Part shown: one piece after another, positions 19,691-20,784 of the stretch | Layout: the number at the start of each line of letters is the position of its first letter | How positions within the stretch are numbered: the first letter of the stretch is position 1 | IMG/VR virus record: IMGVR_UViG_2880378312_000006 | DNA from: a virus | Lineage: Duplodnaviria > Heunggongvirae > Uroviricota > Caudoviricetes | Length of the DNA: 64,000 bases | Reading direction: 5' to 3' (one strand) | Translations under genes and position numbers: made by a program | Notes under the pieces: model-generated | The model's database searches: none | Told to the model about the DNA's origin: nothing | What the model saw: the letters and a program-made list of their open reading frames with translations, nothing else

Positions 19691-19900
19691 ATGCCAAACA
19701 AAAAAAGAAATCCGCTTATTGAAAAACAGATTGAATGCCTGGTAAATCAACTCAGGCAATCAGGGTTATTAAAAACTCATTCAGAGTTGAGGCTCACAGA
19801 ATCAGCATTCGACGATAAATTAAATAATGTCCTTTATAATGGCATTATTGATTTTAATCGTTCTGTTGGTCGCCGCGGCCCTGCTGGTGTTTCCTTATAA
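19691..19900 (+). CDS. Hypothetical protein (69 aa), convergent with and abutting the 212-aa gene
   Basis: GGAGG 5 nt upstream of the ATG at 19691; stop codon directly adjacent to the stop of the opposite-strand gene (TAATTA). Confidence 0.45.
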   Translation: MPNKKRNPLIEKQIECLVNQLRQSGLLKTHSELRLTESAFDDKLNNVLYNGIIDFNRSVGRRGPAGVSL

Positions 19901-20539
19901 TTACCAGTCAATCCAGAGTGGACCGTGTTCAGCGTAAATATAACTGTACACATCCAGATTATATTTGTGGTCTGTTAAGAACAGGCCGCAAATACATGCC
20001 GAAGCTTCCAGTGCAGCGGCTCTGTTACTGAATAACCATGTAGCAACATTCCAGCGTTTTTCTGCATCCCAGTCTTTCTCAAGGCCTGATACCATGAAGA
20101 AACCGTTAGTGTTGCCATCAAATAATTCTGTTTCCAAATTTTTAAGCAATGCCTGATGGACTCTTGCCAGGTATTCCGCCGGAATTTCGCCACGAATTCT
20201 GATGAGATTGTCATAAACAAACATGTTCCCCGCATATGGCGATTTTTCTTTCTTGTTTTTTAAACCAGCATCATGAGCAAACTGATCAATTTCTTCTTCC
20301 GTTGGTTTCGTATTGATGTTTTGCGCTGTCGTTTCTGCAATTTTATTTGCCACACTCTCTGAGTCGTGTTTATTTATAGACGCACAGAAATACAATCCGG
20401 TAAACGCATCGCGCACATTACGAGCCATATTATCAGTGTCTTTTTTCGTTACCGATTCCAATTCAAGTTCGTTCAGACGATGACGAAGTGTGTGTGCTGC
20501 AATCTCCTGGATTGAAGGAGGTAAATCTTTAAATTCCAT
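19901..20539 (-). CDS. Hypothetical protein (212 aa), no recognisable family; immunity-region cargo
   Basis: ORF 19901-20551; preferred start is the ATG at 20539, preceded by GAGG overlapping the upstream stop; soluble, no TM segments evident. Confidence 0.6.
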   Translation of the reverse strand: MEFKDLPPSIQEIAAHTLRHRLNELELESVTKKDTDNMARNVRDAFTGLYFCASINKHDSESVANKIAETTAQNINTKPTEEEIDQFAHDAGLKNKKEKSPYAGNMFVYDNLIRIRGEIPAEYLARVHQALLKNLETELFDGNTNGFFMVSGLEKDWDAEKRWNVATWLFSNRAAALEASACICGLFLTDHKYNLDVYSYIYAEHGPLWIDW

Positions 20540-20550
20540 CGTCAACCTCA

Positions 20551-20784
20551 TCAGTCAGTGTTTCTGGCTAACCAGCGACGCGCGCCAGCTTCAGTTTTAA
20601 ACGTTTTGCTTTTGGTATACGTCATCGCGGTGAACGTACCGTCCTGGTTGGGGAACACGCCACATACCAGAGATTCGTTGTTGCCAAGATTGAGCGTATC
20701 CATGTTGACCTCATTTCCCCTTAACGCCGGGGTAGCGGAACAAAAACCTGCTGCATAGTTATTAAAGTTGAACCCTGCCGTCAT
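20551..20784 (-). CDS. Hypothetical protein (77 aa), first gene downstream of cI
   Basis: ORF with GAGG-type RBS; translationally coupled to the 212-aa gene; occupies the rexA/ydfA position. Confidence 0.5.
   Translation of the reverse strand: MTAGFNFNNYAAGFCSATPALRGNEVNMDTLNLGNNESLVCGVFPNQDGTFTAMTYTKSKTFKTEAGARRWLARNTD

Follow-up and report, generated by a model that had tools for sequence, protein, structure and literature searches.

A convergent pair of co-inherited genes in the variable slot of a Qin-type dicBF early operon of an E. coli O157:H7 lambdoid prophage

We analysed a 64,000-nucleotide (nt) stretch of DNA from a member of the Caudoviricetes (IMG/VR record IMGVR_UViG_2880378312_000006; hereafter the window) and examined a gene cassette at 19691-20784, located between a cI-like repressor gene and the small RNA (sRNA) DicF. 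Sequence comparison identifies this region as the slot for variable cargo in an early-left operon of the Qin dicBF type, carried by a lambdoid prophage of E. coli O157:H7, the chromosome of which is identical to the window over 13.7 kb; the integration site of the prophage adjoins an ompW remnant. Behind a homologue of ydfA, the slot contains a gene for a 212-amino-acid (aa) protein on the minus strand and, converging on it from the plus strand, a gene for a 69-aa protein. Comparison with related prophages gives good support to an organization in which two constant ends, the amino-terminal domain (N-domain) of the large protein and a structured antisense leader in front of the small gene, flank an exchangeable centre made up of the large protein's carboxy-terminal domain (C-domain) and the small protein. 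We tentatively interpret the pair, at low confidence, as an early-lytic effector and a lysogen-expressed antidote that are switched by convergent transcription.

The C-domain and the small gene travel together. In all loci that we opened except one (L021, from strain C5), a homologue of the 69-aa gene converges on the C-domain, and the two 3′ ends abut or overlap. Three C-domain architectures keep this pairing: fusion to the N-domain in E. coli, a standalone form in Salmonella (loci L010 and L012), and linkage to another N terminus, with or without a helix–turn–helix (HTH), in Salmonella Cox-type prophages. The two distant C-domain clusters P0177 and P0187 are found in Salmonella prophages with an int-C-Cox switch, where the C-domain gene directly follows cox, and each of these loci encodes a convergent small-protein homologue of 64-69 aa. 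Each Salmonella locus with a small gene has a C-domain partner, and the standalone C-domain abuts the small gene. The pairing persists at 30-39% identity between C-domains and 44-52% identity between small proteins, across two types of prophage switch and with the flanking sequences replaced. At the DNA level, the window and Salmonella L010 share a block that runs from 19604, at the first leader hairpin (HP1), to 20259, at the C-domain start, and comparison with L019 reveals a near-identical N-domain and linker followed by divergence across the distal C-domain and the small gene. Of 5426 complete E. coli genomes, 597 have the small gene (744 places) and 600 the C-domain DNA (751 places). Other alleles of the N-domain protein have different small open reading frames (ORFs) opposite them, and some have none. 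Salmonella L010 carries two tandem cassettes (4227-5591), each with its own copy of the leader: one consists of the standalone C-domain and a 69-aa gene, and the other of an N-domain protein of the P0161 type and a 64-aa gene (PHROG 4987).

The 212-aa gene (19901-20539, minus strand) starts at an ATG preceded at 7 nt by GAGG. An earlier sequence-only reading of this DNA had proposed the ORF, and it proves to be real: the Prokaryotic Genome Annotation Pipeline (PGAP) calls the same coding sequence (CDS), PHROG 2151, a family of unknown function, matches it from end to end, and the ratio of nonsynonymous to synonymous substitution rates (dN/dS) in the C-domain is 0.13-0.22, compared with about 0.48 in the N-domain. 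The C-domain is under purifying selection. In a profile search of 1.84 billion representative proteins, the N-domain (residues 1-65; 20345-20539, minus strand) emerges as a helical module common to many early-operon proteins, and about 45 of the 53 representative clusters match only this N-terminal part (residues 1 to ~60-90) and continue into unrelated C termini. A linker joins this common module to the rare alpha/beta C-domain (residues 100-212 and the stop codon; 19901-20242, minus strand), which recurs in just P0177 and P0187, at 30-39% identity. Close homologues of the 212-aa protein (65-100% identity) are confined to Escherichia and Salmonella. In the AlphaFold2 (AF2) model, the C-domain core has a predicted local distance difference test (pLDDT) score of ~66-76, and a search with this model returned no specific fold match. 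The protein has no Pfam, NCBIfam or PADLOC match. In a sequence search of solved structures, the best match was a nucleoid occlusion protein, which we rejected as not significant (E = 0.04), and a Pfam search of ten relatives with the N-domain or the C-domain gave a single match, the HTH in P0177. A collection of phages contained no full-length homologue of the 212-aa protein and no homologue of the 69-aa protein. Shiga toxin (Stx) phages do carry an N-domain homologue, a 147-aa early-left protein (VT2phi_272 YP_009187334) that is ~42% identical over 86 aa and, unlike the window protein, ends in a different C terminus and faces no small ORF.

The 69-aa gene (19691-19900, plus strand) has a GGAGG before its ATG, is called as the same CDS by PGAP and matches PHROG 4274. 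Its stop codon and the one of the 212-aa gene lie side by side as TAATTA (19898-19903), confirming the convergent arrangement described in the sequence-only reading, which also correctly placed the gene antisense to the DicF- and DicB-producing operon. Because its dN/dS is 0.08-0.28, we consider it a real protein-coding gene. Homologues of the protein are confined to Escherichia and Salmonella, at 44-100% identity. The AF2 model (pLDDT 83) is a two-helix hairpin followed by a conserved disordered tail, GRRGPAGVSL (GRRGPAGVxL across homologues), a predicted shape that is typical of antitoxins. Foldseek comparison of the model with the PDB yielded nothing better than E ~5, the protein has no Pfam, NCBIfam or PADLOC match, and the function of PHROG 4274 is unknown. 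Profile hidden Markov model and structure searches thus gave no functional match for either the 212-aa or the 69-aa protein, and both stand as uncharacterized, as first described.

The small gene is preceded by a structured leader of about 90 nt (19602-19690, plus strand) that is conserved more strongly than the coding sequence it precedes. RNAalifold predicts three hairpins: HP1 (CCGGA-N9-TCCGG; 19604-19625); HP2 (~19631-19655), in which sequence varies between lineages and pairing is kept; and HP3, in which CUCCAU at 19655-19660 pairs with AUGGAG at 19679-19684, so that the GGAG ribosome-binding site is sequestered. Three sequences carry a compensatory change from A-U to U-A in HP3, and the single-sequence fold of the leader has z = -2.7. 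Upstream lies a putative small-gene promoter (TTTTCA-17-TAAACT; 19568-19596, plus strand) that matches at consensus level, with 7 nt between its -10 box and HP1. At nearly every locus, a -10-like hexamer occurs at exactly this distance, although the sequences upstream are unrelated. The covariance model finds exactly one match in the window (81 bits) and a match in every related locus. Degenerate copies occur in Qin and in the Stx2 phage VT2phi_272: that of Qin (45.5 bits) has no ORF behind it, and that of the phage (33.8 bits; L004 5422-5502, minus strand) lies at the N-domain gene's 3′ end and is likewise not followed by a small ORF.

Other prophages use the same leader in front of unrelated small ORFs from at least six further PHROGs, all of unknown function, and these ORFs often face a different C-terminal domain of the N-domain protein. 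Nine other leader-driven small ORFs have no Pfam match. In L055, L071, L089 and L129 (from Edwardsiella, Trabulsiella and others), the leader precedes proline-rich peptides of 30-36 aa, such as MLINQFGDLPKPTPDGQVPYRPAPSPKPPEKP. Two further leader-driven ORFs, of 99 aa in L025 and 91 aa in L026, were set aside as doubtful, having no PHROG match and overlapping the large gene. A genome-wide scan for the HP1 pattern returned mostly chance matches in GC-rich genomes, the real ones being in Escherichia, Shigella, Trabulsiella, Edwardsiella and a few others. A put- or nut-like role of the hairpins on the early strand is less likely, given the G-U pairs, the fixed -10 box and the Shine–Dalgarno sequence and ATG that follow on the small-gene strand. 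We also rejected an RNase III site arising from the antisense RNA: on our estimate, which combines the Qin coordinates with the 190-nt DicF species (PMC10448788), it falls outside the predicted antisense transcript.

The two genes of the pair are predicted to be under opposite control. The repressor gene (20996-21634, minus strand) encodes a 212-aa cI-like protein with an HTH and an S24 peptidase domain (Pfam Peptidase_S24, 48.5 bits; HTH_3, 21.5 bits, just below the cut-off). RefSeq/PGAP annotates just its C-terminal 112 aa (20996-21334) as 'LexA family protein', and the ORF is probably under-called there. Between cI and the DUF1391 gene, as the ydfA homologue is also classified, is a 290-nt intergenic region that contains a sigma-70-like, PL-like promoter (TTGACC-17-TAAACT; 20911-20883, minus strand), the equivalent of dicBp in Qin. 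An OL-like operator (20913-20928, minus strand), the 16-mer GTTTTGATAAAAAAAC, abuts the -35 hexamer of this promoter directly. The other two copies of the 16-mer (GTTTTGAT-N3-AAAAC) are confined to the cI/cro intergenic region, where they lie at 21635-21650 and 21681-21696 and form an OR-like region (21635-21696). Allowing one mismatch at most, the 16-mer has 3 sites in 64 kb compared with 0.17 expected, and none of 100 shuffled sequences reaches three. Just downstream of the PL-like promoter sits a leader that is conserved in related prophages; relatives of other immunity types each carry, at this position and ahead of the same leader, a promoter and a palindrome or operator block of their own.

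In Qin, the polycistronic ydfABC-dicF-dicB transcript starts at dicBp, upstream of ydfA, and DicA represses this promoter ~22-fold through PL-like operators (PMC10448788, PMC5069750). In the lambda record, rexAB lie between cI and OL/PL. Because a PL-like promoter and an OL-like operator separate cI from ydfA in the window, and given this lambda layout, we place the cassette in a repressor-controlled early-left operon; repressor control is known for Qin and is here predicted from the operator sites. With an operator-flanked early-left promoter and with Qin dicBF repressed by DicA, the ydfA homologue and the 212-aa gene should be off in the lysogen and come on when the prophage is induced. Among the cassette genes, only the 69-aa gene, with its own putative promoter, plausibly fits expression in the lysogen. 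These results overturn the proposal that the cassette occupies the slot lambda uses for rexAB, as the PL-like promoter and operator (20883-20928) separate it from cI whereas lambda rexAB precede OL/PL. They also reverse the expectation that its first two genes would be on in the lysogen, and remove ydfABC as a lysogen-expressed precedent, these genes belonging to the DicA-repressed dicBF operon. Equating 'downstream of cI' with 'lysogen-expressed' is a tempting positional inference that is corrected here. A true rexAB-like slot is seen in the related E. coli prophage L020, where the repressor gene and the PL-like promoter are separated by a relBE toxin–antitoxin pair (3921-4399). Just past the cI stop codon in the window is a GC-rich 6-bp hairpin (GCCATC...GATGGC; 20951-20967, minus strand) without a T-run, which may or may not stop the cI transcript.

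From these observations we propose, with less than even confidence, the following mechanism. The large gene would be transcribed only once the repressor is removed, at induction or infection, and the small gene, driven by its own promoter, would have its product made in the lysogen. The two proteins would form a cognate pair in which the C-domain is a host-directed early-lytic effector and the small antidote binds it by the conserved disordered tail, so buffering against early-promoter firing that is leaky or stochastic. Once the prophage is induced, strong convergent transcription together with sense–antisense pairing would silence the small gene and thereby release the effector.

Several observations weigh against this interpretation. 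The C-domain has no obvious catalytic motif, and searches by sequence and by fold linked the cassette proteins to no toxin, antitoxin or defence protein. Protein toxin–antitoxin pairs are seldom arranged convergently, and both promoters, that of the early operon and that of the small gene, are consensus-level predictions. As no intrinsic terminator was detected after cI or between cI and the cassette, some weak read-through from the cI transcript may occur. Some leader-driven small ORFs have no convergent partner, such as a 59-aa ORF in L016. Strain C5 (L021) keeps an intact large gene despite an internal deletion of most of the small gene, and because the large gene is retained after this loss, the antidote cannot be obligatory in the lysogen; the C-terminal 'WFKG' ending of the L021 large protein is common to several protein clusters. 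By sequence comparison, the loss in L021 is a secondary deletion in one E. coli lineage. The assignment of effector and antidote is our own, as sequence alone does not fix which partner is active. In L021 we also noted a 211-aa ORF with CxxC pairs just upstream of the leader (1692-2456), and a C-terminal FKG gained by the large protein.

The main rival explanation assigns the roles the other way round, as in an exclusion and escape pair of the SieB/Esc or BstA/aba kind. The 69-aa protein would be an exclusion or abortive-infection factor made in the lysogen and the early C-domain the antidote by which the prophage, producing it first upon induction, avoids aborting itself; heterologous phages without a cognate C-domain would be blocked. 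The co-inheritance and opposite expression logic of the two genes fit this explanation equally, and unrelated small ORFs behind one conserved leader follow the pattern of a defence-cargo hotspot. Lambda provides a close topological parallel, with sieB on the opposite strand converging on N, the promoter-proximal first gene of the PL operon, and the two stop codons abutting. The resemblance does not extend to the proteins. SieB is a membrane protein, of 184 aa in the lambda record, and has no sequence similarity to the 69-aa protein; the latter is modelled as a soluble two-helix hairpin and gave no match to SieB in Pfam or through PHROG 4274. We know of no co-variation between N and sieB. A precedent for self-immunity comes from BstA, as outlined in its preprint (bioRxiv 10.1101/2020.07.13.199331). 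Against the exclusion and escape explanation, none of the three cassette proteins matches any component model in PADLOC 2.0, and the buried ribosome-binding site suggests low expression of the putative exclusion factor. In L021 and similar variants, the large gene has stayed intact after loss of the small gene, whereas an antidote with no remaining target should decay; this retention mildly favours the effector reading over the escape reading. Overall we regard an exclusion and escape pair as unlikely.

An equally unlikely explanation is that the two genes have no functional coupling and are linked by adjacency alone, the 212-aa protein being an ordinary early accessory protein and the 69-aa gene independent cargo behind a mobile antisense promoter and leader unit. 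That the leader drives unrelated ORFs, sometimes in tandem without a facing large gene, would be expected on these terms, as would the loss of the small gene and the Stx-phage N-domain protein that has only a degenerate leader and no small ORF beside it. However, adjacency alone does not readily explain a pairing that survives C-domain divergence to 30-39% identity, three architectures, two switch types and replaced flanks, and both genes are spanned by the block shared with L010 (HP1 to the C-domain start) and by the divergent block that separates the window from L019 (distal C-domain and small gene).

The explanation offered in the sequence-only reading, in which the ydfA-like and 212-aa genes are co-transcribed with cI and serve in superinfection exclusion or abortive infection in the manner of rexAB, now appears improbable. 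Like lambda rexAB, the cassette genes are accessory genes close to the immunity region and on the cI strand, with no intrinsic terminator detected between cI and the cassette. However, lambda rexAB are upstream of OL/PL and co-transcribed with cI, whereas the window cassette is downstream of an operator-flanked PL-like promoter. Read-through from cI would also express toxic dicF and dicB, the equivalent Qin genes are repressed in the lysogen (PMC10448788), and searches of Pfam, NCBIfam and PADLOC revealed no relationship to RexA or RexB. Least credible of all is a purely RNA-level role, in which antisense transcription from ~19603 would dampen early-operon read-through or the large-gene messenger RNA and the small ORF would be incidental: the convergent overlap with no terminator between the genes and the survival of the leader in Qin without an ORF behind it would suit such a role, but the small ORF is under protein-level purifying selection, and the residues that define the fold of its product are retained in homologues at 44% identity.

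The cassette shares features with two known classes of system. Type II toxin–antitoxin pairs likewise join a small helical protein with a disordered tail to a larger protein with which it is co-inherited, whereas the cassette genes are convergent with separate promoters instead of co-directional and gave no match to such a family in Pfam, NCBIfam or PADLOC. Polymorphic toxin–immunity cassettes of the contact-dependent inhibition (CDI) and Rhs types similarly combine a constant N terminus with variable C-terminal domains and a small variable gene at the variable end. Unlike them, the cassette has no secretion or delivery domain and no recognized toxin fold, has a convergent partner and is found in a phage early operon.

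The first gene of the cassette is the one protein of the three that can be recognized. It encodes a 50-aa homologue of YdfA (DUF1391; 20551-20703, minus strand; Pfam PF07151, 102.1 bits against a 27.3 cut-off), is called by PGAP and is 88% identical to K-12 YdfA, so that the statement that none of the three proteins is recognizable stands for the 212-aa and 69-aa proteins only. The two-gene pair on the cI strand was likewise half right. The 212-aa ORF with its GAGG is real, and the '77 aa' given for the first gene is the longest form of an ORF that stays open to 20784 (20551-20784), the conserved CDS being 50 aa. The 27-codon 5′ extension is not conserved, having an in-frame stop in L020 and no start codon in Qin or L019, and the 50-aa start has a GAGG of its own. 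Translational overlap of the two genes was also misassigned: at the upstream stop, the overlapping ATG (TGATG at 20551) would start an alternative 216-aa form. The 212-aa form begins at the ATG with the GAGG, 11 nt past the ydfA stop, and is thus closely spaced from its neighbour without overlap. A literature search with Ybl81, DUF1391 and the protein accessions found nothing functional.

The remaining gene content supports the assignment to a Qin-type operon, with DicF sRNA and dicB downstream on the same strand. DicF (19301-19352, minus strand; Rfam RF00039, 76.7 bits against a gathering score of 48 bits) belongs to the same early operon, as does dicB (18938-19126, minus strand; Pfam DicB PF05358, 113.8 bits; annotated by PGAP). 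Pfam, Rfam and PGAP therefore locate the cI-type repressor, DicF and dicB around the cassette as originally described. Between DicF and dicB there is a sub-threshold Rfam match to STnc100 (19094-19303, minus strand; 38.4 bits against a gathering score of 47 bits). The full minus-strand order is cI, the OL-like operator and PL-like promoter, the ydfA homologue, the 212-aa gene, DicF, dicB, a DUF1482 gene, an exonuclease gene encoding 814 aa, xis and int, with the 69-aa gene on the plus strand between the 212-aa gene and DicF and a cro-like gene adjoining the repressor gene and divergent from the rest. Qin (dicA, dicBp, ydfA-ydfB-ydfC-dicF-dicB-ydfD-ydfE) has the same skeleton, including a promoter between the repressor gene and ydfA, with homology over ydfA and its 5′ untranslated region and 92% DNA identity from the DicF leader through dicB. 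It differs in that ydfB-ydfC are replaced in the window by the 212-aa/69-aa pair, YdfB and YdfC showing no similarity to the cassette proteins, and in that the window repressor is a cleavable HTH-S24 protein instead of DicA and uses a different operator sequence. The Salmonella prophages L010, L013 and L016, which bear the module, have no DicF and carry C4 antisense RNA, isrK copies and Phage_ASH genes downstream in the early region.

Flanking sequences of the dicBF-type early operon are matched in 4584 of the 5426 complete E. coli genomes, often in several copies, and the cassette does occupy a place where prophage accessory functions sit, as the sequence-only reading had recognized. Known products of dicBF operons affect cell division, metabolism, virulence regulation and phage resistance, and the promoter-proximal genes have had no known function. 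More speculatively than for the pair itself, the locus may represent an undescribed, hypervariable early-operon cassette system in enterobacterial prophages, in which a constant N-domain with an exchangeable C-domain is set against an exchangeable small protein expressed from a conserved, structured antisense unit of promoter and leader; the 212-aa/69-aa pair would be one allele of an effector–antidote (or exclusion–escape) class, switched by convergent transcription between lysogeny and induction. Exchangeable, co-inherited pairs with opposite expression logic and a structured antisense leader provide a testable handle on these promoter-proximal genes, and may be a new source of small effector–inhibitor pairs in the prophages of pathogenic E. 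coli and Salmonella.

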